DNA from: Myxococcota bacterium
GTDB lineage: Bacteria > Myxococcota_A > UBA796 > GCA-2862545
Length of the DNA stretch: 32,947 nt
Direction: 5' to 3'
Assembly (NCBI GenBank): GCA_039208735.1
Contig: JBCCQY010000105.1
Span: 1-32,947, forward strand
In this document: piece after piece, positions 1,276 to 19,076 of the stretch
Layout: each line of letters begins with the position of its first letter
Position numbering within the stretch: position 1 is the stretch's first letter
Notes under the pieces: model-generated
What the model was told of the DNA's origin: nothing
Database searches by the model: none
The model's input: the letters and a program-made list of their open reading frames with translations, nothing else
Program-made: the position numbers and the translations under genes

Positions 1276-4017
1276 TCAATCCGAGGGTTCGAGCGAAGCC
1301 CGAATTCGCGTAAGGCGACGCTGCAACGGCCCATGGTCCTTGGAAATCTGCTCTTCGGCGGCGGTAATGTCGCGATGGGCAAGACCGCGGTTGCCCCGAC
1401 CAGCGTGGGCTTCGGCCCGGGTGATCAAGGCGTCCGCCAACAACATGCGGTTGCCACATTGATTCAACCACGGCAATTGCCGAGACACCAGGCGCTCGGC
1501 TTCGGTGTAGTGCTCCTGGTCTACCAGCAAGCAGGCGCGCTCGTTGTTCACGAAGTGGCGGATGTAGGTCAGGCCAAGGTCCCCGCACCTGGCTTCCGCC
1601 TCGTCCAGAAGGACCGCAGCTGCTTTGAACCGTCTCTGGCGTCGCTCGAGTTTGCAAAGCCGCACGCGGGCGTAGCAAGCCTCGCGGACGTTGTCATGGG
1701 CCAGTTGAAACGCCAAGGCCCCCTCCAACGCCTTCCGGGCGGCCGCGACGAGCCCCAACCGAAGCAATACGACGCCGAGGGTAGACCGGAGGATCTCGGC
1801 AAACGATGTGCTGCCCAATCGGCGATGGAGCGCAATCGCCTCATTGAGGAGGGTTCGGGCGTGGCCCTCTTGGCCCATGACCGACGCCAACGTCCCCAAT
1901 AAGCCCGTCACACCGGCCTGACCGAATCGGTTGTCGAGCGACGCATACAATTCGCGCGCCGTCTCGTAGCCCTCACGGGCTTCCACTAAACCCCCCACCA
2001 TCCATCGGCTGCTTGCAACGTTGACGAGCGTGCGCGCGTGTAACTCCAAGTCGCCGACCTCCTGGCTCGCCCGTAAGGCCGCTTCGCAGGTCACTCGAGC
2101 TTCCTCCACGTTGCGTTGATCTCGGTACAGCCAAGCCTGGCAGCTGAGGACCGCGACCCGAAGTCGTGCATCGCCCTGACGCTCCAAGACCTGTTCGCCC
2201 ACCGTCAGGCTGTCGCGGGCGCCCTCCGCTTGGCCCGACATCATCCTCCCCCAGGCCTGCTGCGCCGCAATGCGGCCTTCAATCACGGTGTTACCGCCGC
2301 ACGCCCGAGCCGCCGCCAAGCCGCGCTCCAACACCTGATCCGCCTCGTCAAGGCGCGCCGATCGCACCAGCAAATCCCCCAACCGTAAAGCCATTTCGGC
2401 CTCGAGATCCGAGGGCAGTTCCAACGCTCGCACGCATTCGGCAAGCCCAATCCAGGACGAAAACGGTCCCACGTCCGACATCACGACGAACGCCGCCAGC
2501 AAGGTGTCGACGGCCGTTGGCACGTCCCCCCGAGCCACCGCTCTCCGACACGCAACCACCACGTTTTCGAGATCCTGCCGCACGTCGAGTGGATGAGTGG
2601 CCGCACCCGCACGAAGGCGAGCCCCCGTGCGAGCGAACCACGTGCCATGCCGGCGATGCGCCTGTGCAACATCGTCCAGCTTGGACATGGCGTACTCCTG
2701 GGCACTCACCAACAATCGAAAGCGATCCTCTGCAGCTGGGGTGACCCAGCTCAATTCGACAAGCCGCTGGAGAATGTCTAAGGTGAACCCTCCGGTTTGA
2801 ACAACGGCCTCCGCCGCCTCGATGGTGAATCCGCCTTCAAAGACCGACAGCTGAGCCAACCCCGACCGCTCGTCCTCAGACAACAGTTCGAAGCTCCAAT
2901 CGAGGACCCCAGCGAGGCTGGAATGCCGAGCCGCGATCCGTCGCGTGGAAGCGAGCAGTCGAAAGCGATCCGAAAGCCTGGGCAGCAGCCGGCTGGGCGG
3001 CAAAACCCGAACCCGCGCGGCGGCAAACTCGATGGCCAGCGGCAGTCGATCGAGCAAGCCGAGCAATTCCGGAAGCGCGGCCTCGTCTTCCTCGGACAAG
3101 CGAAACCCGGGGCGGGCCGTTCCCGCGCAATGAAGGTAAAACGAAGGTGCGTCTTCTTCCGCGAGAGGCCCCAGTAAAAACCGGGTTTCGAGAGCGAGAC
3201 CCAGTGGCTCGCGAGTGGTGACCACAATGTGCAGTTCAGTGGTACCGGCCATCCAGCGCTCGAGAGCCTGTCGCAGGGGTTCGGTGACCCGCTCAGCGTT
3301 GTCGATGATGAGCAATGCCTGACCCAGGTGGCGCAAACAATGTTCGATGCGATCCCCCAATGGGTCTCGCATCACCACCCCCAAACACCGCGCGATGGCC
3401 CCCACCATTTGTTCGGTGGTGTGCGCATCCACCAAATCACAAAAATGAATGCCCCCTGGCCAAACGTCTTGTTCATTGTGCCGACGCGCTCCTTCGACGA
3501 CAAGCCTGGACTTTCCTGTACCGCCTAGACCGATGACGGAAACAAGGCGCTGCATTCGAACCTGTTGATCGAACAGCTCAAGTTCCCGAGTTCGGCCCAC
3601 GAAAGCACTGCGAGCGTTCGGCAATCGAACCGGCGGGGAGACCGTGGGCGGCGCAGGCGTTTCGTCCGGCTCCTCCTCAACCTCGGGGCGAACTGGAAGA
3701 AATACGTAGCCAACCCCATAGCGGGTGATGAGGTGTTCGGGCCGCTTGGGATCGCGTTCGACTTTCCGTCGAAGCGTGTACATGGCTTTGTCGACTGCGC
3801 GCGTGGTCGTCCGACGGGAATACCCAAACCGCTCCGCAATTTCGTGCTGAGAGATTGGCTCCCCCGGACAAGCCACAAGACAGCAGAGCAACGTCCGTTC
3901 TCGCTCGGTTAGGCGACCGTCACGCCCACGGGCCAGCCGGCCAGTGACCAGGTCCACCGAACAGCCAAGGAGCTGCACCCATTGCGCAGGGGGTATGGGA
4001 AGCAAGTCAGAATCCAC
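1276..4017 (-). CDS. Winged-helix (OmpR/SARP-type) - STAND/NB-ARC ATPase - TPR transcriptional regulator (AfsR-like, COG3903-type)
   Basis: N-terminal wHTH (LTERERTLL...TRAVDKAMYTLRRKVERDPKRPEHLITRYGVGY); Walker A GLGGTGKS; Walker B LLIIDNAE; LDRLPLAIEFAAAR motif; C-terminal helical TPR-like repeats; GTG start with AGGAG upstream. Confidence 0.9.
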   Translation of the reverse strand: MDSDLLPIPPAQWVQLLGCSVDLVTGRLARGRDGRLTERERTLLCCLVACPGEPISQHEIAERFGYSRRTTTRAVDKAMYTLRRKVERDPKRPEHLITRYGVGYVFLPVRPEVEEEPDETPAPPTVSPPVRLPNARSAFVGRTRELELFDQQVRMQRLVSVIGLGGTGKSRLVVEGARRHNEQDVWPGGIHFCDLVDAHTTEQMVGAIARCLGVVMRDPLGDRIEHCLRHLGQALLIIDNAERVTEPLRQALERWMAGTTELHIVVTTREPLGLALETRFLLGPLAEEDAPSFYLHCAGTARPGFRLSEEDEAALPELLGLLDRLPLAIEFAAARVRVLPPSRLLPRLSDRFRLLASTRRIAARHSSLAGVLDWSFELLSEDERSGLAQLSVFEGGFTIEAAEAVVQTGGFTLDILQRLVELSWVTPAAEDRFRLLVSAQEYAMSKLDDVAQAHRRHGTWFARTGARLRAGAATHPLDVRQDLENVVVACRRAVARGDVPTAVDTLLAAFVVMSDVGPFSSWIGLAECVRALELPSDLEAEMALRLGDLLVRSARLDEADQVLERGLAAARACGGNTVIEGRIAAQQAWGRMMSGQAEGARDSLTVGEQVLERQGDARLRVAVLSCQAWLYRDQRNVEEARVTCEAALRASQEVGDLELHARTLVNVASSRWMVGGLVEAREGYETARELYASLDNRFGQAGVTGLLGTLASVMGQEGHARTLLNEAIALHRRLGSTSFAEILRSTLGVVLLRLGLVAAARKALEGALAFQLAHDNVREACYARVRLCKLERRQRRFKAAAVLLDEAEARCGDLGLTYIRHFVNNERACLLVDQEHYTEAERLVSRQLPWLNQCGNRMLLADALITRAEAHAGRGNRGLAHRDITAAEEQISKDHGPLQRRLTRIRASLEPSD

Positions 4018-4083
4018 ACCAGAGGTGTACTCCTAATTCGGAGAGTGTGAAGCCCGCTGTTACGTTTGGGTCATCGAACCGAT

Positions 4084-4596
4084 CTAAGGCGTGTCATCCC
4101 CCCCCATGCGCGACACGACAAAGGCTCTGGCTGCCCTCCACTCTCGCTGAATCGTACGCTCGGACACCCCAAGGGTTTCTGCCACTTCGGGAATCGAGAG
4201 CCCCCCAAAGGTGCGAAGCATCGCAATTTCAGCCCCCCGCGGATCGACAGCCTCAAGCTCGGTGAGGGCCCGGTCGAGGTCGATCAAATCCACATCCCGT
4301 GGTGAATCGGCCAACCCGGAAAGCGTCACCTGTCGCTGATGGGGACCGCCGCGTTTGTCTCGGCTCTTCGCCCGACCGCGGTCGATGAGGATCTGCCGCA
4401 TGGCCCGAGCCGCGACCGCGACGAAGTGCCGCTCGGAGTCGAATCGCCCGTCGGCCAGCTTGAGCCAAGCCTCGTGCAGAATGGCGGTGGGCTGAACGGT
4501 GGCGTGACCCCGCCCCCGTTCGGCGAAAATGCGTTCTGCCAACCGGTGGAGGTGGTGGTAAACGTCGTCGTCGAGTTGAACCTCAAAGTCGCCCAT
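4084..4596 (-). CDS. ECF sigma-70 factor, TIGR02999 (Planctomycete/Verrucomicrobia-type, kinase-associated) family
   Basis: Family motifs VYHHLHRLA, TVQPTAILHEAWLKL, HFVAVAARAMRQILIDRGR..KRGG, LIDLDRALTEL, FGGLSIPEVAETLGVSERTIQREWRAARA. Confidence 0.9.
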   Translation of the reverse strand: MGDFEVQLDDDVYHHLHRLAERIFAERGRGHATVQPTAILHEAWLKLADGRFDSERHFVAVAARAMRQILIDRGRAKSRDKRGGPHQRQVTLSGLADSPRDVDLIDLDRALTELEAVDPRGAEIAMLRTFGGLSIPEVAETLGVSERTIQREWRAARAFVVSRMGGDDTP

Positions 4597-4600
4597 GGCC

Positions 4601-7600
4601 TCAATCTACCGTGGCGTCTGCCAGTGCGACTTTGAGTTCCTCAATGTCCTGGGACAACTGCGAGGTCGGCGACAACTCCGCCGCGTCGGCAAGGGTCCTC
4701 GCTTCGGCAAGACGGTCCTCGGCATCGACCCGATCCCCGCGCGCGAGGGACAATCGACCGATACGACACAGCAGTTTCCCCAATTCAAGTGGATCGCCCC
4801 CCCGGCGCAGCCGCTCCTCGGCGCGCTGGGCCACCGTGAGCGCCCGCTCCCCGCGACCCGAGCGCTCGAGTACACCCGCCAAGGTGCCGAGCGAAATGCC
4901 TTCGAGCATGGAATCGCCAACGTCGACGGCCAACGACACCGCCGCTTCAAGCTGCGCGGCGGCCGCCTCCAGTTCACCCTGACTCGCGAGAAACGACCCG
5001 TAGTTCGCCGCATGCATGCCTTCGTGAATCCGATCCCCAATGGCCCGTTGGATGGCCAGCGCAGCTCCAAAGGCGGACCGGGCGGCCTCAGCGTCACCCG
5101 TCAGTGAACGAATACCCGCGATCATCCCCGTCGCGAGCCCCTCCGTTCGTCGATCGCCTAGCATCGCGGCCAACGATCGGGAACGTTCATAGGCAGCAAG
5201 GCCCTCCTCTAGGTCTCCGTGGGTGCAATGCAACGCTCCGAGGTAGCTCTCGGTCAACGCCTCACCGCTCCGATCGCCACCCGTGCGCTGAAGCCTCCGG
5301 GCCCTGCGCAACTGATCGAGCGGGACCTCGTAGGCCCCCCCTCGGATGCCCGTCAAATGTGCCATCTCGGCGAGCGCCTCTGCTTCCACGATGGACGCGC
5401 CCACGGACTGGGCCAACGGCAGCGCTGCCTCAAACCATGTGGTGGCGACATCCGACTCCCGACGCAGCACCGCTCCATGGCCCAACGCGGTCAGGGCTCG
5501 CGCTTCAAGTTCGCGCTCGGAAAGGCGTGCAGCACGTTCTCGAGCCTGTTCGAGCCACCCCCGCCCCGCCTCGGCATCGCCGGCTCGATTCAGGAGTTCC
5601 CCAAGGTCCACCTCGAGCCGGGCCCGCGGAGCATCGCTGACCTGTTCGGCGAGCACCTGCTCGGCGATCGTCACCCCTAGCGCGAAGGGCCCCACTCGCC
5701 GGAGGACCGCCAATGCGGCACTTGCCGCCGGGGCGGCCACGTCAGGCAACCCCGCTTCGACGGCCCACCGCGCCGCCGCCAATGCATTGCCTAGATCGGC
5801 CGGACCAATGGGGTGCGCGGCAAAGTGAGCCGCATGTGCAGCACGAGCAGGCTCCGCGGCCCCCTCCGAAAGCTTCTCCCTAGCGAAGAGACGAATCGAA
5901 GCCAGCAAGGTGAACCGTTCCCCCCTCGCCCGCACGAGGCTGTGCTCGACCAGTGCATCGATGAGGTCGATGGCGTCGGCCCCTGGTACGTCGACCACCG
6001 CCTCTACGGCCTCAAGATCAAACGACCCTTCGAAGAGGCTGCACAGCGCCAGCGCATCACGCTCGTCGTCCCTCAGCAGATCCCAGCTTGCATCGAGGGC
6101 TCCCCGCAGGGTCGCGTTGCGTCCGGTCGCATGCTTGCGCGCCAGGACGTCGAGCCGCCGTTCAAGCCGCCCAATCATCTTGCGGGGCGGCAAGACCCGC
6201 ACCCGAGCCGCCGCAAGTTCGAGCGCGAGAGGCAGCCCATCGAGCCTACGCACCAGCTCGACCACGTCCCCCACGTTGGCGTCTTCGACCTTGAAGGACG
6301 GATGGACGCGGCGAGCGCGCTCGGCGAACAACGCCACGGCCGGGCTTTGGTCGGCTTCGGCCAGGGTCGCGTTCGCCGGGGGCAACGCTAGCGGCTCGAC
6401 GACAACCAGCCTCTCACCACCTAGATCGAGGCGTTGGCGCGACGCTACCAACCATCGGGCTTCCGGCGCACGGCGCCTTAGGGCGGCAAGCATCGGAGGA
6501 AACACCTCCGCCAGATGCTCCACGGGATCAACGATGACGAGGGCGCGGCCACGATGGCCCAGCGCCGCCCCCAGCGCATCCAAGGGTGTACCTCCATCGA
6601 CGGGCACCGAAAGCCCTTCGGCCAACGCCCGCACGACTTCATCTTCGCTCCGGGCGTCCGCGACCGTGCAGAGAAACACGCCGCCTGGCCACATTCCCCG
6701 TGTCGAACGACCGTAGTGGATGGCGAGCGTCGTCTTGCCCGTGCCCGCCGTGCCCTGAAGGCTCACCACGGTCGCCTCCGCGAAGGCAGTGGCAATGGCC
6801 GCATGCTCGACCTCCCGGCCAACCACCGGCCCCGCATCGGGCAAATCGGGAAGCGCCGGACCCGAAAAGGCGAAGGTCAGCGGTGCAATCGCAGGCGGCT
6901 CCGGCGCCTCTTGGACCTCAAAACACCGCACGACCGTCGTCGCGTCGCGAGGCCGTGCATCTTTGGCGGGCTCGACGAGCGCGTCGAGCAACGACCCCAG
7001 CCACTCCGGAATCTGGGGTGCGGTCTCTCGAATCGAAGGGAGTCGCTCTCCTTTCTGAACGGCCAGCGCCCCCAAGGGCAGGTCGCCATCGAATGGCAGC
7101 TGACCGGTGGCCGCGAAACGGAGGGTCAACCCCAAGGCGTAAAGGTCGGCGCGACCATCCAACTGATCGGGGCGATCGAAGACCTGCTCAGGAGCCGCGT
7201 ACACCAACGTTCCCACCACCTGACCGGTGCGAGTGAGTTCGTGAGGCGCGGCCTGGGCTCGCGCCACCCCAAGATCGAGGACTCTAGCAACCCCATCATC
7301 GCCCAAAAGAATGTTGCTAGGCTTTATGTCGCGATGAACGTAGCCCGCCGCATGGATCGCCGCGAGCCCCCGGGCCGCCTGACCTCCGATGGTCTGCAGC
7401 GCATCGGCAGACAGTGGGCGCTCGGACACCCGGTCGAGCAAGGTCTGCCCAGGTACAAAGTCCATTACGAGAAGCGGCACGCTCGCCTGTTCGGTCACGA
7501 GCTGCCTGACGGACCGAGTCCGCACCACATGTGGATCCTGGACCGCCAAACCGGCTTCCGCTTCGCGGAGAAAGCGCACCAACATCGTCGGGGCATGCAC

Positions 7601-7948
7601 GAGATGCGGGTGGATCAGCTTGAGGGCCAGCGGCTCACCTAAGGGATCGAAGGCCTGCCACACCTCCCCCATGCCGCCGCCCGCAATCCAGCGTGGTTCG
7701 CGAAAGCCCGCCGACGCCAGGCGACTCGCGGTCGATGCGTGCAGCGCCCGACGGACGGCTTCGGGACCGGTCTCCGCGGTGGCTAAGGCGGCTGTGTCTT
7801 CGTCGGCATCCAGCAGCGCTTCAACCTCCTGGCGCAGTGCAGCGTCCGACCCACACGCCGCCGCAAGGGTCGCCTCACGCTCGGACGCGGGCAACTCCAC
7901 CACGGCGTCGAAGACCGCCCGCACCCGGGCCCAGCGCGCCGCATCCAC
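4601..7948 (-). CDS. Ser/Thr protein kinase - STAND/NB-ARC ATPase - TPR fusion
   Basis: Kinase motifs GGGMGEVW, ALK, RFLREA, HRDIKPSN, DLG, GTLVYAAPEQ, RADLYALG; Walker A GTAGTGKTT; Walker B LVIVDPVE; LDGLPLALELAAAR; TPRs; AAGGAG before the GTG start. Confidence 0.92.
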   Translation of the reverse strand: MDAARWARVRAVFDAVVELPASEREATLAAACGSDAALRQEVEALLDADEDTAALATAETGPEAVRRALHASTASRLASAGFREPRWIAGGGMGEVWQAFDPLGEPLALKLIHPHLVHAPTMLVRFLREAEAGLAVQDPHVVRTRSVRQLVTEQASVPLLVMDFVPGQTLLDRVSERPLSADALQTIGGQAARGLAAIHAAGYVHRDIKPSNILLGDDGVARVLDLGVARAQAAPHELTRTGQVVGTLVYAAPEQVFDRPDQLDGRADLYALGLTLRFAATGQLPFDGDLPLGALAVQKGERLPSIRETAPQIPEWLGSLLDALVEPAKDARPRDATTVVRCFEVQEAPEPPAIAPLTFAFSGPALPDLPDAGPVVGREVEHAAIATAFAEATVVSLQGTAGTGKTTLAIHYGRSTRGMWPGGVFLCTVADARSEDEVVRALAEGLSVPVDGGTPLDALGAALGHRGRALVIVDPVEHLAEVFPPMLAALRRRAPEARWLVASRQRLDLGGERLVVVEPLALPPANATLAEADQSPAVALFAERARRVHPSFKVEDANVGDVVELVRRLDGLPLALELAAARVRVLPPRKMIGRLERRLDVLARKHATGRNATLRGALDASWDLLRDDERDALALCSLFEGSFDLEAVEAVVDVPGADAIDLIDALVEHSLVRARGERFTLLASIRLFAREKLSEGAAEPARAAHAAHFAAHPIGPADLGNALAAARWAVEAGLPDVAAPAASAALAVLRRVGPFALGVTIAEQVLAEQVSDAPRARLEVDLGELLNRAGDAEAGRGWLEQARERAARLSERELEARALTALGHGAVLRRESDVATTWFEAALPLAQSVGASIVEAEALAEMAHLTGIRGGAYEVPLDQLRRARRLQRTGGDRSGEALTESYLGALHCTHGDLEEGLAAYERSRSLAAMLGDRRTEGLATGMIAGIRSLTGDAEAARSAFGAALAIQRAIGDRIHEGMHAANYGSFLASQGELEAAAAQLEAAVSLAVDVGDSMLEGISLGTLAGVLERSGRGERALTVAQRAEERLRRGGDPLELGKLLCRIGRLSLARGDRVDAEDRLAEARTLADAAELSPTSQLSQDIEELKVALADATVD

Positions 7949-7962
7949 AGGGTCTCCTTAGA

Positions 7963-9759
7963 TCAGGGAACCGCCCCCGGACGTCGAAACCAGTATCGCG
8001 GCCAGGCATAGCCGAGCCCATCACCGCCGATGCCTCCCACCACGCAATCCTCGACGGACAGGCGGCGCGCAACGGCGGGGAGCCGCAACTCCCCTTCGGG
8101 AACCGCTGGGCACACGGCAGGATCACGCCAGCAGGTCGGCAACGTTGCCGTCCGCTCGGCGCAGGCCAACCCCACCCCCGTCGCAATGCCGCGGTAGCCT
8201 GAGTCTTTGGGTACGCCGGGCGGCGCATCCCCCCAACACACAATGGTGCCATCACCGGTCGCAATGCCACAGCCGTACACGGCGTTACCGCCCTGAGTGC
8301 CATCGATTTCAAGAAACGGCCCCGGAGGGAGGGCGACCGCCAGCCCGTCACCCGTCGTGGCATCGAAGCACGACACCAACTGGTCTTGGTCTCGCACGCA
8401 GACGCCGTTGGCACCAAACGGGGCGATATCTTGGGCGTTGACGGGCATCACGATGGCGCCGCCCCCACCGTGATCGAGACACGTCGCGTTGCCCTCGTCA
8501 TCGAGAGAGCACACCCGGGAGCCCATGACGGACAGGTCCACCCTGTCGTTTCCGAGGTCCACCGCCCACACATCCTGCCCATCGGCGCATGTCACACCAT
8601 TGGCGGTGCTTGCGCACGCGATCCCAGGCCCCAGCGCAACGTCGAGGTAGCCCGTGCCGTCAAGACCCGGACCGTCGCCCCATGGTGCTTCCGTGCTCGT
8701 TGGAAACGCCCGGGGATGTGGCGGAACCCCACCGAGCACGGGAGCATCGTCTCGCCAACAGGCGAGGCTGCCGTCCGTGGCGAGCAACGCGCAACCAAAG
8801 CCATCGCTGATCGAAAGCGCGGTGATGGGCGTATCGCAGGCATCCCCCCATCCGCGGTTGGCGGAGTCGACCTGCAGGGGATCCGGCACAAACGGGCAAA
8901 CATCCAGGCTATTGGGGACCCCGTCCAGGTCGGTATCGAGGAAGGTGGTGAAGTCGGGCACCGTTTCGTTGGTGCTCTGCACCCGTTGCAGCTCCGAGAG
9001 ACCTAGACGGGGCAGCGCAGGATCGAGCTGGGTCTGCGCCGTGTCGAACAACCCCTGAAGGTTGGCATCCGGCGTGTTTCCACCGAGGAAGGCGTTTCGA
9101 AGGTCATCGAGGTAGCTCGCCAGTGAGCCGGTTCCTTCACGCTCGAGGAACAGGCCGACTTGCGCGACGATCGACGAGGTCGCAAACAACCACGCAGACT
9201 CATCCCCCTCGGCGAAGATCGGACTGCCCGAACCACGATCGGGCCCCTTCGGCAGCCCAAGTGCCAAGGCCACAGCAGTTTCGGCTTCGACGGTGGCCTC
9301 GGCGAACGTACGTCCCTGCGCAACCAACTCGGCCACCCGCGGCCGGCTCAGATCGGTGAGGAGGGTGAGCTGCACCGCGGCGGAATCTTCGTTCAGTTCG
9401 CCGTACCCCGACAACGACAGCGGCTGGCTAGGGAAGGCCCCCCGTGCCTCGTCGTAGGGCGCACCTGTGGTCTCGATAAGCACGAGGCCGCGGCCCGTAG
9501 CGACGTACCGGCCAGCGGTCCCGACCAGGCTCACGGTTGGCTCACCAACCGGCTGGAGACCCGGATTCAGGGACTGCACCGAGACTTCCGTGCCCTCGGC
9601 CATGGGCCCCTTGAAGACGATGCCGTCGCCTTGGTAGGGCCCTTCCGTGGACGTGGTGCTCGTCGGTCCGAGCGTCCCGATAGGGTCGGTGGTGCCTGGC
9701 GATCCCGGGGCGCTGCAAGCGACCGACGCCAATGCCAATGAGATTAGGAAGCGCAACAT
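7963..9759 (-). CDS. Lipoprotein with thrombospondin type 3-like Ca-binding repeat and RCC1-like beta-propeller repeats
   Basis: Signal MLRFLISLALASVA|C; T/S/P linker; DTDLDGVPNSLDVCPFVPDPLQVDS..GWGDACD (TSP3-like); repeated G..C.....G...CWG units (RCC1-like). Confidence 0.8.
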   Translation of the reverse strand: MLRFLISLALASVACSAPGSPGTTDPIGTLGPTSTTSTEGPYQGDGIVFKGPMAEGTEVSVQSLNPGLQPVGEPTVSLVGTAGRYVATGRGLVLIETTGAPYDEARGAFPSQPLSLSGYGELNEDSAAVQLTLLTDLSRPRVAELVAQGRTFAEATVEAETAVALALGLPKGPDRGSGSPIFAEGDESAWLFATSSIVAQVGLFLEREGTGSLASYLDDLRNAFLGGNTPDANLQGLFDTAQTQLDPALPRLGLSELQRVQSTNETVPDFTTFLDTDLDGVPNSLDVCPFVPDPLQVDSANRGWGDACDTPITALSISDGFGCALLATDGSLACWRDDAPVLGGVPPHPRAFPTSTEAPWGDGPGLDGTGYLDVALGPGIACASTANGVTCADGQDVWAVDLGNDRVDLSVMGSRVCSLDDEGNATCLDHGGGGAIVMPVNAQDIAPFGANGVCVRDQDQLVSCFDATTGDGLAVALPPGPFLEIDGTQGGNAVYGCGIATGDGTIVCWGDAPPGVPKDSGYRGIATGVGLACAERTATLPTCWRDPAVCPAVPEGELRLPAVARRLSVEDCVVGGIGGDGLGYAWPRYWFRRPGAVP

Positions 9760-10855: not shown

Positions 10856-11565
10856 TGTCCAACGAAGACCTCGATGTCCGGATCCCGTTTCGGACGCTGC
10901 GGTGGTTCCTCCTGCTGTCGGTCGTGGGCTCGGTGACCGTAGCCACTTGCAACACGCTGGTGGTCGCCCACGGCGACATCCAGAATTGGCCCATGTGGTC
11001 GATGAACCTCGCCTACTGGGCGGGCTCCATGACGCTGGCGTTTTCAAGCGTCGGGATCGTCCTCGTCACCTTCGTGGGCCTGCGGCCCGCCGGCCTCGCC
11101 TGGGCGCTGCCGCCTGCCCTGCTGTTCGGGTACTTCCTCGCACTCGGGTCGGCCGGGCACGGGTCGTTCTTCCCGCTGTACGAAACGCACCAGGTCATGC
11201 TCGCGGCCCCCGAAGGCTCCGAAGCCAGAACGGTCGTTGAGGGGCTCCGCGGGCAGATGCGCCTGAACATGTTCGTTCTGTTCTTCACCCCGGTCACCCT
11301 GCTGGCCATCGGGTCCATCTGGTACTCGCTCGTCGTCTTCTTCCGCTCCACCCTCTTCCCGCGGTGGATGGGGCTGGTGAACCTCTTCGCCATCGCCCTT
11401 GCGACGTTCACGCTCGGTGAGCAAACGTTCATCCCCGAGCCATTCAAGACGCTGTTTCAGGGCTTCGGCTTCCATGGGGGACTGCTCACCTACTATGCGC
11501 TCGCGTACACGTTCCTCGCTCGCCGAGACCGGGAGAGCGGCGAAACCGCTTACGGCGCTACGTAA
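10855..11565 (+). CDS. Multi-pass membrane protein of unknown function (236 aa)
   Basis: ATG overlaps the methyltransferase stop (TGATG); about 6 hydrophobic segments. The upstream extension to 10162 in the ORF track overlaps the methyltransferase and is not considered real. Confidence 0.8.
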   Translation: MSNEDLDVRIPFRTLRWFLLLSVVGSVTVATCNTLVVAHGDIQNWPMWSMNLAYWAGSMTLAFSSVGIVLVTFVGLRPAGLAWALPPALLFGYFLALGSAGHGSFFPLYETHQVMLAAPEGSEARTVVEGLRGQMRLNMFVLFFTPVTLLAIGSIWYSLVVFFRSTLFPRWMGLVNLFAIALATFTLGEQTFIPEPFKTLFQGFGFHGGLLTYYALAYTFLARRDRESGETAYGAT

Positions 11566-14500
11566 ACGGCAGCACCGACGCTCGGCTCCGGCATCGTTTG
11601 CCAAACCACGAGCGCCTCGCCTGTGGCCGACATCGCGACTTGCGGTTCGACGGAACCGTCACCGATTCCACTTTGGTCGATCTGCTCCGCGAGACCCCAT
11701 CCCTTCGTTGGATCGAAGTGAGCCGCGCGGATCCGAAACTCGATGGAAGAGGCAGCGACGTTCTGGGACCACACAACCATGGCGTTGCCACCAGCGTCAG
11801 CGGCGACATCGAGCCCATTGACGACCACTTGCGCGCTCCCCTGGTCTTCCTCGAGCAACGTTGACGCTCCCCACGTCCCTGTCGCGTGATCGTAGCGATT
11901 TGCGTAAACATCCCACAGTCCCCCGTCCTCTTCGAGCCAGGCCACGAACACGTTGTCGAGCCCATCGATCGCAAGCTGTGGAACCCGGGCATCTTGGTTA
12001 CCGCGTTTTGGCGCCTCAAGATCATCCCACGCGTCGAGGGTCGCGTTGTAAGCATAGACCTCGACGGAATCGGCATTGCCTGCCACGCCCTGCTTCAAAA
12101 CGGCAACGACCGCACTTCCGTCGGACCGCATGCCCGCCTCCTGAGGCTCGTGCCCAAAGGAGTCGGGGCTGAGCACCGGTGCCGACCATGTGGCCGTTGC
12201 GACGTCATAGATCGAATGGTAAAGGCCCGAGTCTGCAAACACGGCCCGGTGTTGGAACCAGACGGCCACGCCGTTCCCAACCGCATCGATCGCGAACACG
12301 GGGGCCAGACCGTCGCCCGAATCGTCGGTTTCGAGCACCTCGGGGGATGACCACTGCGCGCCTCCCGGGTCGTAGACCGAACGCCACCCTTTGCTGACGG
12401 GGTAGGTCAGGTCCGGGTTCCGCGTCCAGCCCGCGATGACCTGACCATCCTCGTTGGCCACGAGCGACACATTGAAGTTGCTTCCTTCGTCCAGAAGGGT
12501 CTGCCCCTGCCAACCCGCTCCGGGGGTATAGAGGCTCGCCTCAACCGCGGTGTCTCGCCACAACGCCATCGCACGGCCCGAGCCCGTCATCGCGATGCGG
12601 GGTCGCACGCTGTTGAACGAAAGGTCCTCGATGAGTTCGAGTGCACGAAACGATCCACCGGAGTAGCGCACCACCCCGATATGGTCGTCAAACGAAATGG
12701 GGTCGGGATCGCTGTCTGTATTGAAGACGATGGCTCCGTTCCCGGAAGCGTCCATGGCCACGGAGGGCTCCCATCCAGACCCAAGGTCCATGGTCGGCTG
12801 CCAGCCAGGTGGTAGGGGCACGGGTTTGCCATTCCCGGTGTCGGTCGAAGATTCGGTCGTCGACCCGGAACCATAGGTCACGTTCATGACGTCGCGATCG
12901 ACGTTCGTGCCTGCCGAGCACCCGAACGCCAGGCACGCTGCGACAAGTCCCTTGCCTCGACGGCGCACCAACCCGATCAACAACAAGATCCAGAGCCCCG
13001 CCCCAGGTGCGGGCGTTGCGCAGCCACACCGCGCGGGCTCGGACGTGGGGAGGAGTCCGTCGGGCTCGTCCTTCGAATCCGAATGAACGTCGAATTCCAC
13101 GACGGCTCGGCTCACGAAGCCCGCGGCGTCCTCTGCCTCGGCTTCGATCCAGTGAGTGCCGGTCTCCAGCCTCACCGCTTCGTTCACGATCGGCCCGGTC
13201 ACATCGAGGTCCGTGCCATCGATCCGAAGGGTCGAGTCCGTCAGACCGAACTCGTCCGTCAACACGACCTCGATCGGGATGGGAGCTTCCGCAGCCCAGG
13301 AAGAACCCGGTGCAGGCGAGACGATGCGAACGACGGGCGGGAGCCGGTCGACATCGGCACAAGCGTCCGTAGTGGTCGGGCGACCTGTGACCGTCAGCAG
13401 GTGGGCGCACACCCGCTCGGGGGTGGGGCGTAGAAGATCTTCGGCGTCGAGTTCAGTGATGGTGCGCACCGTCGCATCGACAACGGTCACCGGGGCCTCG
13501 AAGAGCACCTGCTCGGACGGAACAATATCGGGCGACCCGCTCGTGTCCCGTACCCCTGGCATGCGGTAGTCGAATCGAAGGGCATCGATGTCCTCGGCGA
13601 GGGGAAGTCCTCCACCAAAAGGCACCTTCGCGACAAAGGGGAGCCGATCCGTGCCATCGTTACCTGCGACCGTTGCCGTTGTGTAGCCGGCCACGATGAG
13701 CCCTTCCGGCGTTGCGTGCACATCCGTGAACGCCTCGTTGCCATCGGAGTCGAGCGTCGCGAACCACTCGGGCTCGAGCCGGGAGCCGAGACTCGCCATC
13801 CAGGCCGTCCGCACATCGTTGCCCGCGTGCCCTGCGACCACCACCGAATCCTCAACGACAGCGAGGGTTGTGAGCGTGTCGTAGGCCGTGTCATAGACCT
13901 GCGGAAGAAACGGGACGGGGAGTTCGTCGACCCACACTTCGCCATCGGTCGCGACCAACATCGCGTGGATGGCGCTGGAGCCGTCTGGCTCGACCCGAAC
14001 CACGAAGCTTGCCCCAGTTCGAGTGACGTCACGCACCGCGGAGCCCACCGCGACGAACGCACCATCCGCCGCCTCTTCGACATCGAACAATCGGCCGAGT
14101 CGTCGCGTCGATACGATGGCGTAGCTCCACACCACCTCGCCATTACCGGGCTCGATCCGCATTATCCATGCGTTGTCGAGTGAGAAGGGATCGGGACCAT
14201 GCTCGGTCGTTCCGACCACGACGAGATCGCCGTCCGACGTCTCGGTGGCCGCGTGGAGCTGCTGTCGACCATCCCCTTCGTAGATCTTGGCCCACACGAT
14301 ATCTCCGGCTTCCGTAAGCCTCGCAATGATCGCGTCGTCCTGCGGTCCCCTCGCCAGATGCCCGAGCCAGAACACACCGTCTTCTCCGAACTTCTCGAGG
14401 CCATTGATCTCGGCGGTGAAGGGCCGGTCCCCATCCGTGACTTCGTACGAACGGGCCCACAGCAGGTCATTGTCAGGTTCGAAGACGCCCATCCACGATG

Positions 14501-16439
14501 GCGCCCCCCCGACCAAGTGCGTCTCATCCGACAGAACGACCACGTTGTCGGGGCTATGGGTCACGAATTCGGTTTGGAGCCCGGCGCCGAACGATTCGTT
14601 CATCGAGCAAGTGGAATCCAAGATCCAAAGGCGGTGATCCCCTGGTCCCTCCGAAGTCAGTGCCAACGCACCGTTCGGCAACGTCGTCGCGGTGACCCGT
14701 TCGACGGTCGGGTTCGCGACGTCAATCTGGTCGAAGACCACCATCCAGCGAAGGTCACCTCCGGACGTAAACCGATTCAACGCCAACGGATCGGGAACCT
14801 CGAGCGCCGACAACAGCGCATCAGGATGAAACTCGAGGACGCCGCCAAGAGGGTATTCGGCGATGGACTCCCCGAGGATATCGAGCGCAAGGGTACCTTC
14901 GAGCGTGTGACCCGGCCGGATAGCGAACCAGGGCGTCTTCAGGGGCTGGACGTCGAGCCGACCGAACAGCCCGGCCGTGAGCATGACGCGAGAGCCCGTG
15001 GCGCACTCGGGCCACCGGGGCCCGCCGATCCACAACGTGGCGTCGAGCTGGGTTCCGACCTGCGCGAAGGCTCCGAGCGTCGGCGTCAGTTGGGGCGGCG
15101 TGATCTGGAGAGGGTGTGACGTCATCTCGCTGTCGTGCGAGCAGACGCCACCGCGGCCGTCGTTGTCGAAGCAGGTGACGGTAAACGCGTGGTGGACGCG
15201 ATGTTGGAAGTCGAGGAGCATCCCTGCCTCGAGTCCCGCTTCCACGGTCAGCAGATGTTCGAGGTGCAGCCGCATCGGCAACCGAACCGGGCCAAACCGT
15301 AGATCCGGCAGGGGAAAGCATGTTTGCCCCAGGGTGCGTTCGTCTTCGTCTTGCACGTCGGCCATCGCATGAAGCTGGGCCGCCAAGATGGCCTCGGACT
15401 CAAATCGCACCACGAGCTGGGTTCCACCGGGCCGTATGCGAAGCGTAAGGCTAGGTTTCAGCGTGCTTGCGTGGACCTGTCCCGATACGTTGATCGCGCC
15501 ATTCATCAGCGACAGGTCATTGAACGGAAAGGGTGCGGACCAGCCCTCACGCTCTTCGAGGGGAACCTCGTCCCCGTCGAGTTCGGCGATTGGCGTGCCT
15601 CCCACGGGCCCGGTGCCTACCTGCCCATCCGTCGAAGTGCTGAACGTTGCGTAGGCGTAGAGATTCTTGAGGTCGACCGCATCGGTGACCCGACCCGTAA
15701 GCGTCACGAACTGACCGGAGCCTGCGTCTTCGACTTCGCTGGTTTCGGCGACAAAATAGTGGAACCCCTCGGGGAGCAACGACAGATCCGTACCCGGGGC
15801 CGGTCTGAAGTAGAGGGCCGTCGTGCTGAGATCGGTGTCGAGGAGTTCTGGAGGGGCGCCCAGCACATAGAACAGGCGCATGGAAACGGTGTCCGCCGGA
15901 TCCCACGGGGGTGGGCCGAACGGATCGAAAGGGACGTTTCCCGCGACTTCGTAAGCGGCAGCATCGGCCTCGGTCCAATCGTAGAGGACGACGTCATCTT
16001 TGAGCTGGGGGACTTCCTCGGCCCACACCCGAACCGGCACCTGGCCCTGCTCGAGGGCGTCGACCAGCGCATCGAGGTCCACGAGGGAGCCGACCTCGAC
16101 GACCGCGTCGATCGTGCTCGCCGCTTCCGGCGTCGCACCGCCGGCTGACGTGAGCGCGGGAAAGACGGCCGCCCCCAACGTTCGAGCGTCGAACGCCGTC
16201 TGTTGTGAAAAATCGGGCACGGCCACCGCCCGTTCGAAATGGCCGCCTTCCTGGTTCCGAAGCACGACCGACAGCGTGACATGACGCTTCCCCGAGCCAA
16301 GGTCGACCACCGACTGAACGCCGAATCGCTCGGGCGAAAGTTCATCCGCGAAGTCGATCCAGATCGGCAGGTCTTCGACGTAGTGCTCTTGGACTTCGGT
16401 GATCTGAGCGAACGCCAGTGGAGTGAGCAAAAGGACCAT
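11550..16439 (-). CDS. Large secreted/surface protein (1629 aa): beta-rich domains, beta-propeller, Ig-like domain, internal MYXO-CTERM, lipobox, second beta-propeller-like domain
   Basis: GGAGG before ATG 16439; signal MVLLLTPLAFA|Q; repeats of the type IARLTEAGDIVWAKIY; Ig-like PPVVRIVSP...GTHWIEAEAEDAAG; RCGCATPAPGAGLWILLLIGLVRRR; then GKGLVAACLAFGC; repeats of the type P.VA.D..GN...VW to the C-terminus. Confidence 0.85.
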   Translation of the reverse strand: MVLLLTPLAFAQITEVQEHYVEDLPIWIDFADELSPERFGVQSVVDLGSGKRHVTLSVVLRNQEGGHFERAVAVPDFSQQTAFDARTLGAAVFPALTSAGGATPEAASTIDAVVEVGSLVDLDALVDALEQGQVPVRVWAEEVPQLKDDVVLYDWTEADAAAYEVAGNVPFDPFGPPPWDPADTVSMRLFYVLGAPPELLDTDLSTTALYFRPAPGTDLSLLPEGFHYFVAETSEVEDAGSGQFVTLTGRVTDAVDLKNLYAYATFSTSTDGQVGTGPVGGTPIAELDGDEVPLEEREGWSAPFPFNDLSLMNGAINVSGQVHASTLKPSLTLRIRPGGTQLVVRFESEAILAAQLHAMADVQDEDERTLGQTCFPLPDLRFGPVRLPMRLHLEHLLTVEAGLEAGMLLDFQHRVHHAFTVTCFDNDGRGGVCSHDSEMTSHPLQITPPQLTPTLGAFAQVGTQLDATLWIGGPRWPECATGSRVMLTAGLFGRLDVQPLKTPWFAIRPGHTLEGTLALDILGESIAEYPLGGVLEFHPDALLSALEVPDPLALNRFTSGGDLRWMVVFDQIDVANPTVERVTATTLPNGALALTSEGPGDHRLWILDSTCSMNESFGAGLQTEFVTHSPDNVVVLSDETHLVGGAPSWMGVFEPDNDLLWARSYEVTDGDRPFTAEINGLEKFGEDGVFWLGHLARGPQDDAIIARLTEAGDIVWAKIYEGDGRQQLHAATETSDGDLVVVGTTEHGPDPFSLDNAWIMRIEPGNGEVVWSYAIVSTRRLGRLFDVEEAADGAFVAVGSAVRDVTRTGASFVVRVEPDGSSAIHAMLVATDGEVWVDELPVPFLPQVYDTAYDTLTTLAVVEDSVVVAGHAGNDVRTAWMASLGSRLEPEWFATLDSDGNEAFTDVHATPEGLIVAGYTTATVAGNDGTDRLPFVAKVPFGGGLPLAEDIDALRFDYRMPGVRDTSGSPDIVPSEQVLFEAPVTVVDATVRTITELDAEDLLRPTPERVCAHLLTVTGRPTTTDACADVDRLPPVVRIVSPAPGSSWAAEAPIPIEVVLTDEFGLTDSTLRIDGTDLDVTGPIVNEAVRLETGTHWIEAEAEDAAGFVSRAVVEFDVHSDSKDEPDGLLPTSEPARCGCATPAPGAGLWILLLIGLVRRRGKGLVAACLAFGCSAGTNVDRDVMNVTYGSGSTTESSTDTGNGKPVPLPPGWQPTMDLGSGWEPSVAMDASGNGAIVFNTDSDPDPISFDDHIGVVRYSGGSFRALELIEDLSFNSVRPRIAMTGSGRAMALWRDTAVEASLYTPGAGWQGQTLLDEGSNFNVSLVANEDGQVIAGWTRNPDLTYPVSKGWRSVYDPGGAQWSSPEVLETDDSGDGLAPVFAIDAVGNGVAVWFQHRAVFADSGLYHSIYDVATATWSAPVLSPDSFGHEPQEAGMRSDGSAVVAVLKQGVAGNADSVEVYAYNATLDAWDDLEAPKRGNQDARVPQLAIDGLDNVFVAWLEEDGGLWDVYANRYDHATGTWGASTLLEEDQGSAQVVVNGLDVAADAGGNAMVVWSQNVAASSIEFRIRAAHFDPTKGWGLAEQIDQSGIGDGSVEPQVAMSATGEALVVWQTMPEPSVGAAVYVAP

Positions 16440-16520
16440 GCAGCCTCCCACTCGGCGGGTAGCGCCTCTCGACCCAGCAGATGTTCGCAACTCGTACGCA
16501 ATGGCCAGCTACTTTGGTCC

Positions 16521-19076
16521 ATGGGCCAGGTGTCGGTCGGTTCGTGGACGCTCAACCCCACCGCGTCGGAGCTGCGTCGCGGAGGGGAACGGCTCCACTT
16601 GAGTCCGCTGGAACGTGAGTTTCTACGATACATCGCCGAGAGACCGGGGCAAACTGTCACCCGCGAGGAGCTGCTGCGCGAGGTTTGGAACTACGCGCCC
16701 CAAAGCCGAAGCCGCGCGATCTTCAGCACCGTGTCGCGGCTGCGGCTCAAGCTCGGCGGCGATGCCGCTTGTATCGTCAACATCTATGGTCTCGGCTACC
16801 GCTTCGAGCCGGCGGGTGACCCTGGGTTGATCGGGCGCGACCGTGAGCTGCAAAGACTTTCGGAACTCCTCACGAACGAGCGGGTCTGTGTGGTGTGGGG
16901 GCTCGGGGGCATCGGAAAAACCCGCTTGGTCCGGTCTGGGCTGCGGCCGGGTCACACCACGAGTCCAACCACTTGGATCGAGGCCACCTCGATGACCGAG
17001 GTGCCCGAGCTGGTGCTGGCGCTGGCCCGAACGATGGGCCTCGAACGACCCTCACTCGCTTCGGTAACGCTTGCCCTCGGCGCGGCAGGTTCGATGAATC
17101 TGGTGATCGACGGCGCGGAGCAGATCGGGACTCCCATCGTCCAGCCCGTGACGCAATGGCTCATGGCCAACCCCCAACTTCGCATCGTGTTGACCTCCCG
17201 AACCCTGCTCGGCAATACGTTGCCAAGCTTGCCGTTGCGGGCCCTCGACGTCGATGCGGGCCAGACCCTGTTCTTGAGATGCGCGGCGCAGTCTGGGGTC
17301 TCCGTCGAATCCGACCCTGACGTGGACGAACTGCGGTCGCTGGTGGACCAGCTCGCCGGCCTTCCGCTCGCGATCGAACTCGCCGCAGCCCGCACTCGAG
17401 TCCTCCCGATTGCCGATCTTCGACGTCGCCTCGAAACGAGCCTCGAGGTGCTGGAGGTCGGCGAACGCAGTGTCGCCTCGATCCTGGCCGTCTCCTGGCG
17501 CCTCCTCACGCCCGAAGACCAGAGGATTCTTAGACTCGCCGCCCTTTTCCCCGTGCCGTTCTCGGTTGAACAGCTGGAACGGGTCGCCCGCGAGGAGGTC
17601 ATCGACGAGTTGGACCACCTGGTGACAACATCGCTCGTGGTTCGGGATGGCCGTCGCTGGCGACTGCCCGAACTGGTGCGGAGGTTCGCCTCGGCCAAGC
17701 AATGCGACGAAGATCGAGCCAGCTACCGACGTGCGACGGTCGCATGGGCCAGGGATCTGTGGACGGATCCGACCAGAGGCTCAGAGACGCATCGACAACG
17801 GCTGCTCAACGCTGTTCCCGTGTTCGTCGATGCGCTTCGGCTCGCGACCGAGACGACGGACGCGGCCCACCTCGCCATCGCCATCGCCTTTCATGACGCG
17901 CTGATGGGTCCGGTGGCGCGAATGCGGCCCCACCTCGAGCGTCTGACCCTCGAAAAGCTGACGCCCCCCATCGCCGCCGAGGTTCAGCTGCGGCTTGCCC
18001 ATCAAGCCCACCGCGCCGCGCTACCCGATGCAGTTCGGTTCGCCAGACGGGGGCTCCGTCTCGCGGAGCAAATCGACGATGCTGAACTGACCGTCTCTGC
18101 GCTGAAGCTGATGATGCGGCTGACGGCGGGAAAACCGGAACAGACCACGCTACGAGCTCGTCTGCGCACCTTGTCCGATTCTTCCAACTCCAAGCTTCGA
18201 CTCGAGACTCGGGCGAAGATTCTCCTGTCCGACGCCCACCATCTGATGCAGGAGGGGCGCGCACTCGAGGCCCTGGATCGGCTCCGGACGTGCCTTGCGT
18301 GGCTCAATGACGACGAGCTGGAGCTGAAATCCTACGCGGTCAAGGCGATCAGCGAAGCGCTGAATGATCTCGGACGCCACAAGGAAGGCATCGGGCTGCT
18401 GGAGCGCACCTTCGACGAAATGGCAGCGCACGAGGGGTCGGGGGCTCATGTCCGTATCGGCGTTGGACTCGCCGCCACGCTCATCGATCTGGGGGAGCGC
18501 GAGCGAGCTGCCGAGATTCTTCCGGGTGTGTTGCAAGCCGCACAAAGAGGCGGCTACAACAGCATGGAAGCGGTGGCCACGCTGAACCTGGCCAGCGTTG
18601 CGTCGGATCCGGCGACCGCCGAACAGCTGTGCGTTCAGGCACGAGAAGTCGCACGACGTGGGGGTCGCACCGATCTCGCCGCGAGCGCGGAAGGCCGTCT
18701 GGGTCGAAAGAAGCTCGAACGCGGGCAAGCGCGCAAGGCCATCGAATCGCTCCAGCGGGCCTTGGGATGGCTGGGCGAAACGACCCCGCGTCGAGCCTGG
18801 CTGCGCCTGCTCCTGTCACTCGCGCAATGGGTATCGGGCGACGGGCAAACCGCACAGTCGACCCTTGATGAAACCCACCCCATGAGTGCCGCGGACCGCC
18901 ACGCCTTGGTGCTGTGCCGATTGGCGGTGCGGGAGGACTTCGAGGGATTCGAGGAACACGTTGCGAGCCTCGATGCGCCGTCCTCGAAGATCACGACGTG
19001 CATTCAGCTAATTCGCCAAATCGCACCGCTCGGTTCCCGAGCTTCAGCTTACAGGAGCGTGAGCGACGAACGCTGA
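16521..19076 (+). CDS. Winged-helix - STAND/NB-ARC ATPase - TPR transcriptional regulator
   Basis: wHTH LSPLEREFLRYI...VTREELLREVW...RAIFSTVSRLRLKL...IYGLGYRF; Walker A GLGGIGKT; Walker B LVIDGAE; LAGLPLAIELAAAR. Start placed at ATG 16521 because the upstream extension overlaps the divergent gene. Confidence 0.88.
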   Translation: MGQVSVGSWTLNPTASELRRGGERLHLSPLEREFLRYIAERPGQTVTREELLREVWNYAPQSRSRAIFSTVSRLRLKLGGDAACIVNIYGLGYRFEPAGDPGLIGRDRELQRLSELLTNERVCVVWGLGGIGKTRLVRSGLRPGHTTSPTTWIEATSMTEVPELVLALARTMGLERPSLASVTLALGAAGSMNLVIDGAEQIGTPIVQPVTQWLMANPQLRIVLTSRTLLGNTLPSLPLRALDVDAGQTLFLRCAAQSGVSVESDPDVDELRSLVDQLAGLPLAIELAAARTRVLPIADLRRRLETSLEVLEVGERSVASILAVSWRLLTPEDQRILRLAALFPVPFSVEQLERVAREEVIDELDHLVTTSLVVRDGRRWRLPELVRRFASAKQCDEDRASYRRATVAWARDLWTDPTRGSETHRQRLLNAVPVFVDALRLATETTDAAHLAIAIAFHDALMGPVARMRPHLERLTLEKLTPPIAAEVQLRLAHQAHRAALPDAVRFARRGLRLAEQIDDAELTVSALKLMMRLTAGKPEQTTLRARLRTLSDSSNSKLRLETRAKILLSDAHHLMQEGRALEALDRLRTCLAWLNDDELELKSYAVKAISEALNDLGRHKEGIGLLERTFDEMAAHEGSGAHVRIGVGLAATLIDLGERERAAEILPGVLQAAQRGGYNSMEAVATLNLASVASDPATAEQLCVQAREVARRGGRTDLAASAEGRLGRKKLERGQARKAIESLQRALGWLGETTPRRAWLRLLLSLAQWVSGDGQTAQSTLDETHPMSAADRHALVLCRLAVREDFEGFEEHVASLDAPSSKITTCIQLIRQIAPLGSRASAYRSVSDER

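Follow-up and report, generated by a model that had tools for sequence, protein, structure and literature searches.

A single open reading frame (ORF) on the minus strand of contig JBCCQY010000105.1 (assembly GCA_039208735.1), the whole 32,947 nucleotides of which are referred to here as the window, joins a tail-anchored surface protein and a lipoprotein in one frame in the genome of an uncultured marine myxobacterium-type organism. The ORF is an in-frame fusion in which a gene for a MYXO-CTERM surface protein precedes one for a lipoprotein. The sorting enzymes that the cell ordinarily uses are likely to cut the product into two separately lipid-anchored proteins, a reading to which a probability of roughly 0.58 is assigned. 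The first-pass annotation of this DNA had described a full MYXO-CTERM signal at about residues 1138-1161 that is followed by a lipobox cysteine (12918-12920) rather than by a stop, and the open 1,629-aa frame bears this out. The CGC motif begins at residue 1138 (13028), Cys1174 is encoded at 12920-12918, and the stretch between them is stop-free. The Ser/Thr linker and the separate propeller-like domain that had been placed beyond the lipobox are likewise present, although the domain is smaller than first given, as the propeller comprises 426 aa and the original figure of about 456 aa includes the linker.

The junction and its two signals

Both signals at the junction look genuine. The internal tag has the Cys signature (GC/CGC), the transmembrane helix and the basic cluster expected of MYXO-CTERM, and it resembles the TraA-type proteins handled by MrtX in this tripartite build of Cys motif, helix and Arg run, as well as in being encoded in a genome that has a myxosortase. 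It differs from them in its position, since MYXO-CTERM substrates carry the tag at the C-terminus and here 468 further residues follow it. The identity of the tag rests more on its alignment with the terminal tags of five homologs than on scores from hidden Markov models (HMMs). Lineage-specific models are needed according to the authors of the MYXO-CTERM models (bioRxiv 2023.06.07.544157).

The signal of the C-terminal half (C-half) has the basic n-region, the h-region and the lipobox Cys of a lipoprotein, and departs from the usual arrangement in being internal, with no Shine-Dalgarno-supported start, instead of standing at the N-terminus of the translated chain. Cys1174 fits the PROSITE-type lipobox pattern and Cys1169 does not. 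The second signal resembles other lipoprotein signals encoded in this genome. At 2.17, the hydrophobicity of its h-region ranks at the 61st percentile among 268 stand-alone ones, and Phe at position -2 is seen in 16 of the 365 lipobox candidates. When the stops of 62 terminal tags were read through as a control, a hydrophobic stretch followed in 4, and a lipobox in 0 of those 4. With both signals credible, the proposal of the first-pass annotation that RRRGK serves as the tail of the sorting signal and also as the n-region of the second signal gains support, in that a hairpin with this loop shared by both signals is plausible under the positive-inside rule and ordinary Sec behaviour. The features of the ORF are collected in Table 1.

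Table 1. Features of the fused ORF and a divergent neighbouring gene (positions in the window)
Feature	Position	Strand	Basis
Fused ORF, 1,629 aa	11550..16439	-	Open throughout; identical in contig of run X1
Shine-Dalgarno GGAGG before ATG at 16439	16444..16448	-	Sequence
Putative short N-terminal Sec signal peptide, residues 1-11	16407..16439	-	Sequence; same start in P0002
Exported body of N-terminal half: uncharacterised region, probable propeller, Ig-like domain	13086..16406	-	Pfam, Atlas leads <0.9, homolog alignment
Acidic/Pro linker, residues 1119-1137	13029..13085	-	Sequence
Internal MYXO-CTERM: CGC, transmembrane helix, RRR; residues 1138-1161	12957..13028	-	Sub-cut-off HMM; alignment with homologs' terminal tags
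Basic loop RRRGK, residues 1159-1163, common to both signals, putatively cytoplasmic	12951..12965	-	Sequence
In-frame GTG (V1158), possible internal start, without Shine-Dalgarno match	12966..12968	-	Sequence
Second signal: h-region and lipobox to Cys1174	12918..12950	-	Lipobox pattern; hydrophobicity against lipoproteins of the genome
Ser/Thr/Gly linker, residues 1175-1203	12831..12917	-	Sequence
Trp-repeat beta-propeller, predicted 8 blades, lectin-like fold, 426 aa (1204-1629)	11553..12830	-	AlphaFold2, repeat consensus, Foldseek
Divergent wHTH-NTPase-TPR regulator	16521..19076	+	34-40% homolog divergent to a homolog of the N-terminal half in G002

A missed stop at 12900-13030 had been raised as a concern, and contigs assembled from sequencing runs answer it in part. 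A Logan contig of run X1, a marine metagenome that is possibly the source sample, spans 11451-17000 at a depth of 9.2 with 0 differences and 0 gaps, and the frame is open in it. No independent strain spans the junction: runs X2 and X3 hold contigs of related strains (95-99% alike) that overlap the ORF in places, in X3 within both halves, and the stretch 12655-12996 is covered by neither. It is very improbable that an assembly error or a one-off variant explains the missing stop. Depth at the locus is low (about 9), the junction is covered by no independent run, and overlapping gene pairs that a single indel would fuse are common in this genome, but the separately assembled X1 contig agrees base for base, and undoing one slip would not give back two normal genes. 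In neither of the other two frames at the junction is there an Arg tail that soon meets a stop, and there is no start codon between RRR and Cys1174. The junction is therefore not accounted for by a slip of one base, and an origin by a single indel was rejected on these grounds. An origin by loss of a stop codon was also considered. Only one base separates the third Arg codon from a stop codon, yet the same codon accounts for 31 of the 211 Arg codons in tag tails, and its closeness to a stop is therefore no evidence of stop loss.

Relatives of the two halves

A search with the whole protein returned one close relative, P0002 (MEM6926400.1; Myxococcota bacterium according to NCBI), a protein of 1,170 aa with 66% identity that covers the N-terminal half (N-half) alone and ends nine residues past its own RRR. 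The two proteins have in common an 11-residue hydrophobic start, a candidate signal peptide. Close loci were retrieved neither from genome contigs (N-half and P0002 as queries) nor from metagenome contigs (P0002 as query), and the stop of P0002 is therefore taken from its protein name, which lacks a 'partial' flag, and not from downstream DNA. Among 60 relatives, four further full-length homologs of the N-half (31-35% identity) were found in genomes G001 and G002, three of which (31-34%) stop at the tag, and in the fourth the contig runs out at the tag. The internal tag thus aligns with the terminal tags of all five homologs, four of which end there, and continuation into a second signal was seen in 0 of 5 (counting the one cut by the contig end). 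A profile search added no further member to the N-half family, Atlas leads for the N-half were all below 0.9, and the Pfam Big_7 match that marks the Ig-like domain, at residues 1035-1078, scored under its cut-off. The first-pass annotation had named a stop after the Arg run in close homologs, and the lack of the junction in other genomes, as grounds for abandoning its reading. The closest homolog (66%) and the three at 31-34% do stop after the tag, and the same junction was found in no other genome.

Database relatives of the C-half are 21-44% identical to it, and a lipobox pattern stands at the start of 22 of 47 matches in one set and 68 of 149 in the other. The closest colinear matches (30-42%) are Calx-beta-stalked proteins ending in a propeller domain, and the full-length ones among them start with a lipobox. 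An internal tag is present in 0 of 149 C-half relatives, and an upstream tag in 0 of 29 distant C-half loci in the class, within the up to 500 codons seen. Four of the five N-half homologs end at the tag, the propeller relatives are free lipoproteins and none of the 149 carries an internal tag. On these comparisons the ORF unites two genes that used to be separate, in a fusion private to the lineage. The C-half query found no match in four same-genus genomes. The selected 1:1 ratio of products envisaged by the first-pass annotation finds no backing here, because two genomes of the same genus have homologs of the N-half but gave no match to the C-half query, and there is hence no sign of a selected 1:1 partnership.

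Modelled with an alignment of 40 sequences, the C-half folds in AlphaFold2 as an all-beta propeller (pLDDT 90.3, pTM 0.91; the single-sequence fold has a pLDDT of 37.7), and its repeat consensus comprises eight repeats. The model indicates that the C-half folds as an independent domain. The nearest solved folds found with Foldseek are the PLL/CV39L lectins (query TM-score about 0.53-0.58), which share Trp-rich repeats with the C-half but are only 13-18% identical to it, and the C-half is predicted to have one blade more. A sequence search of the PDB gave one weak match (E 0.094), and Atlas places the C-half in unnamed clusters only. Of the 14 differences listed between the C-half and its counterpart in the X3 strain, 10 are synonymous as against 24% expected (p about 3e-4), so the domain is maintained by purifying selection.

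The end of the ORF overlaps a convergent membrane-protein gene on the plus strand by 16 bases (window 11550-11565). Genes for regulators with winged helix-turn-helix (wHTH), NTPase and tetratricopeptide repeat (TPR) domains, an extracytoplasmic function (ECF) sigma factor and a Ser/Thr kinase-NTPase-TPR protein form a cluster at 1276-7948 (minus strand) and 16521-19076 (plus strand), and 7963-9759 (minus strand) encodes a predicted lipoprotein of 598 aa that has a thrombospondin type 3 repeat and whose C-terminal part is rich in repeats. Genome-wide, many exported proteins of the source genome (G000) have signal peptides of 11-16 residues, often without a basic n-region.

Probable processing of the product and recurrence of the layout

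The source genome encodes the enzymes that such a product would need. One of its 10 CPBP proteins passes the Mrt_core model for myxosortase (118.8 bits; cut-off 100), and there are four matches to Lgt and two to LspA. Processing by myxosortase plus Lgt and LspA is likely. Sec would export the N-half by way of its short N-terminal signal, the tag helix would stop transfer with RRRGK remaining in the cytoplasm, and the second hydrophobic segment would restart export, this time of the propeller. Myxosortase would cut at the CGC motif and free the N-half for surface display via the type II secretion system (T2SS), and Lgt and LspA would act at Cys1174 to give a lipoprotein propeller that is probably sugar-binding. 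Sorting of MYXO-CTERM proteins by the T2SS was reportedly the subject of a 2020 paper.

Several points weigh against cleavage of a fused product into two anchored proteins. The internal tag scores under both curated HMM cut-offs, with 13.8 bits for TIGR03901 on residues 1138-1161 in the whole protein and 17.2 bits in a 70-aa piece (cut-off 20), and 15.0 bits for TIGR03382 (cut-off 15.85). The second h-region is just 10 residues long, it follows a 5-residue loop, and the lipobox is preceded by another helix. The junction rests on one run (X1), perhaps the source sample, and selection on the C-half may predate the fusion, given that the X3 contigs do not bridge the junction.

The sub-cut-off score of the tag, and a loop short enough that it may hinder the enzymes, would also suit a hairpin that stays partly or wholly uncut as one inner-membrane protein with two periplasmic heads. 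Such an outcome is given a low probability, as both Cys motifs are intact and MrtX, according to PMC11980579, requires the tag cysteines and works even in Escherichia coli. Alternatively, the fusion could be a recent accident that half works, in which the N-half is sorted and the propeller, not re-exported or processed, is degraded or left in the cytoplasm. The absence of the fusion from all homologs found, the shortness of the second signal and the reported instability of the fused archaeal protein HVO_0405 when uncleaved (PMC7157517) are in line with such an accident, which is nonetheless unlikely in view of a second signal that is intact and typical of the genome, a C-half without breaks, and the persistence between two species of a junction of the same type (C93, see below).

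Conceivably, too, the main source of the second protein is translation that begins internally, at the GTG at 12968 or a nearby TTG, with no need of a polyprotein step. A start at V1158 would give a normal 17-residue lipoprotein signal, and the C93 junction has AGGAGG and then GTG inside its loop, but at the fused ORF none of the four candidate starts is preceded by a Shine-Dalgarno match of at least 4 nucleotides (nt), there is no start codon between RRR and Cys1174, and 191 of the 268 stand-alone lipoprotein candidates of the genome do have such a match. As the candidate starts lack a Shine-Dalgarno match, internal initiation is disfavoured at the fused ORF, where it is judged improbable, and possible at C93.

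Junctions in which a tag is followed by a second export signal recur in this genome and in its relatives. Scanning 12,477 coding-like frames in the source genome yielded 62 terminal and 22 internal tag-like matches, and sorting of the latter by eye left 7 judged real and 15 judged non-tags. All 7 real internal tags, the fused ORF included, are followed by a signal-like segment, which is of type I in C20, C26, C54 and C125 and contains a lipobox in C36, C93 and the fused ORF. The C54 tag lacks an upstream exported domain and an eighth case, C164, has one helix only, and with both of these counted apart there are, besides the fused ORF, five clear tag-plus-signal junctions in the genome, two with lipoboxes. 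Genome G013, a single contig, has 113 TIGR03901 matches, of which 110 were examined; 3 of the 110 are internal and have a type I signal. In G001, 2 of the 50 examined (of 60) are internal; these counts leave out 2 of 5 open-frame matches in G013 and 3 of 6 in G001 that were judged false, and one in G001 that is a run-on tail without a signal. No internal match was found among the best 30 of 137 in G023.

The lipobox-type junction C93 (locus L026, about 2076-2165) is kept stop-free at 57% identity in the sister species G001 (L060), and the run from tag to lipobox is kept also in G068, which belongs to another genus and has a frameshift just before the tag (L061). This frameshift is either an assembly error or the mark of a broken gene. 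The Arg codons of C93 in the source genome form AGGAGG with a GTG seven bases on, and internal initiation may coexist with fusion there. No upstream tag was found for the second halves of C36 (27 loci) and C20 (5 loci) in relatives, so these junctions look private, like that of the fused ORF.

Several of the other cases have features of their own. C125 (L027, 812-3232) is a thrombospondin-repeat protein duplicated in tandem within one ORF, in the order unit, tag, type I signal, unit and terminal tag, and C20 (L022, 874-4452) carries an internal tag, a type I signal and a terminal tag, with a second half that stands alone in the relatives found. C54 (L025, 2512-2721) has a tag-like remnant before a barrel/OmpA-like gene, with no exported domain upstream. 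In C164 (L028, 2118-2327), a barrel-plus-OmpA fusion, the tag helix and the second signal seem to have become a single hydrophobic segment, at odds with a hairpin of two helices.

Gene neighbourhoods point to the origin of such junctions. The next ORF lies within 60 nt for 23 of 65 terminal-tag genes, and four terminal-tag genes overlap a signal-bearing gene by 4 nt, one of those genes encoding a lipoprotein. Pre-fusion states thus exist, and tight gene neighbours are a visible route to fusion. The fusion probably arose from the tight arrangement of a tag gene followed by an exported gene that is common in this genome, and would have been tolerated since the joint resolves itself, not through selection of a 1:1 pair. 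More tentatively, and at somewhat less than even odds, the order of MYXO-CTERM, Arg run and lipoprotein signal may act as a self-resolving joint throughout the clade, with myxosortase and Lgt/LspA working on the same membrane hairpin, such that fusion of any tagged gene with a lipoprotein gene would yield two lipid-anchored proteins.

Known systems and significance

The first-pass annotation knew of no description of the arrangement, a view which is too broad. Internal MYXO-CTERM motifs are rare according to Guo, Haft and Wall 2025 (PMC11980579), but one is published there in MXAN_5598 of Myxococcus xanthus, a probable gene fusion for whose N-terminal part the authors propose processing and anchoring at the surface. 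Junctions of tag and signal also occur repeatedly in the present genome and its relatives. MXAN_5598 resembles the fused ORF in an internal MYXO-CTERM that is put down to gene fusion and differs in its second half, which is an outer membrane barrel with OmpA instead of a lipoprotein propeller; the accessible text mentions no second signal or two products for it. The layout of MXAN_5598 and TraA-TraB, with barrel and OmpA after the tag, is absent from the fused ORF and has its own case in this genome in C164. HVO_0405 of Haloferax volcanii is a precedent for the reading given here to the fused ORF: two genes have fused in a strain-specific manner, and the cognate sortase-like enzyme cleaves the product at an archaeosortase site in its centre (PMC7157517). 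It belongs to the archaeal ArtA/PGF system, and no second export signal is described for it in the accessible text.

A lipobox following a tag is not described in the literature searched, which took in few subscription papers, and a search for bacterial polyproteins with internal signals gave nothing relevant. Single precursors that are severed at an internal signal behind a membrane anchor, as the product of the fused ORF may be, include FbcH, the cytochrome b/c1 precursor of Bradyrhizobium, and viral envelope polyproteins built as anchor-then-signal hairpins. They differ in relying on signal peptidase I and in yielding obligate partners, whereas the fused ORF would use two lipidation pathways and has no evident partnership. 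The word 'internal' was not found in the accessible text of the in-silico preprint 10.1101/2023.06.07.544157, supplements aside. The lipobox variant of the tag-plus-signal layout is new relative to the literature searched, and the general layout is partly in print.

Being private, the fused ORF is a weak exemplar, and a C93-type junction, which is conserved between species, is a better test case. If the proposed processing is true, an internal lipobox with another helix in front of it is open to Lgt and LspA, and the order of the myxosortase, lipidation and signal-peptidase steps could be read from one precursor. It would also bear on the proposal, left open in PMC11980579, that Lgt lipidates MYXO-CTERM. 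Annotation would then overlook proteins hidden inside such ORFs. Should the self-resolving joint prove true, it would amount to a rule for bacterial polyproteins, under which fusions of surface genes would be nearly free and a lipobox need not be N-terminal.

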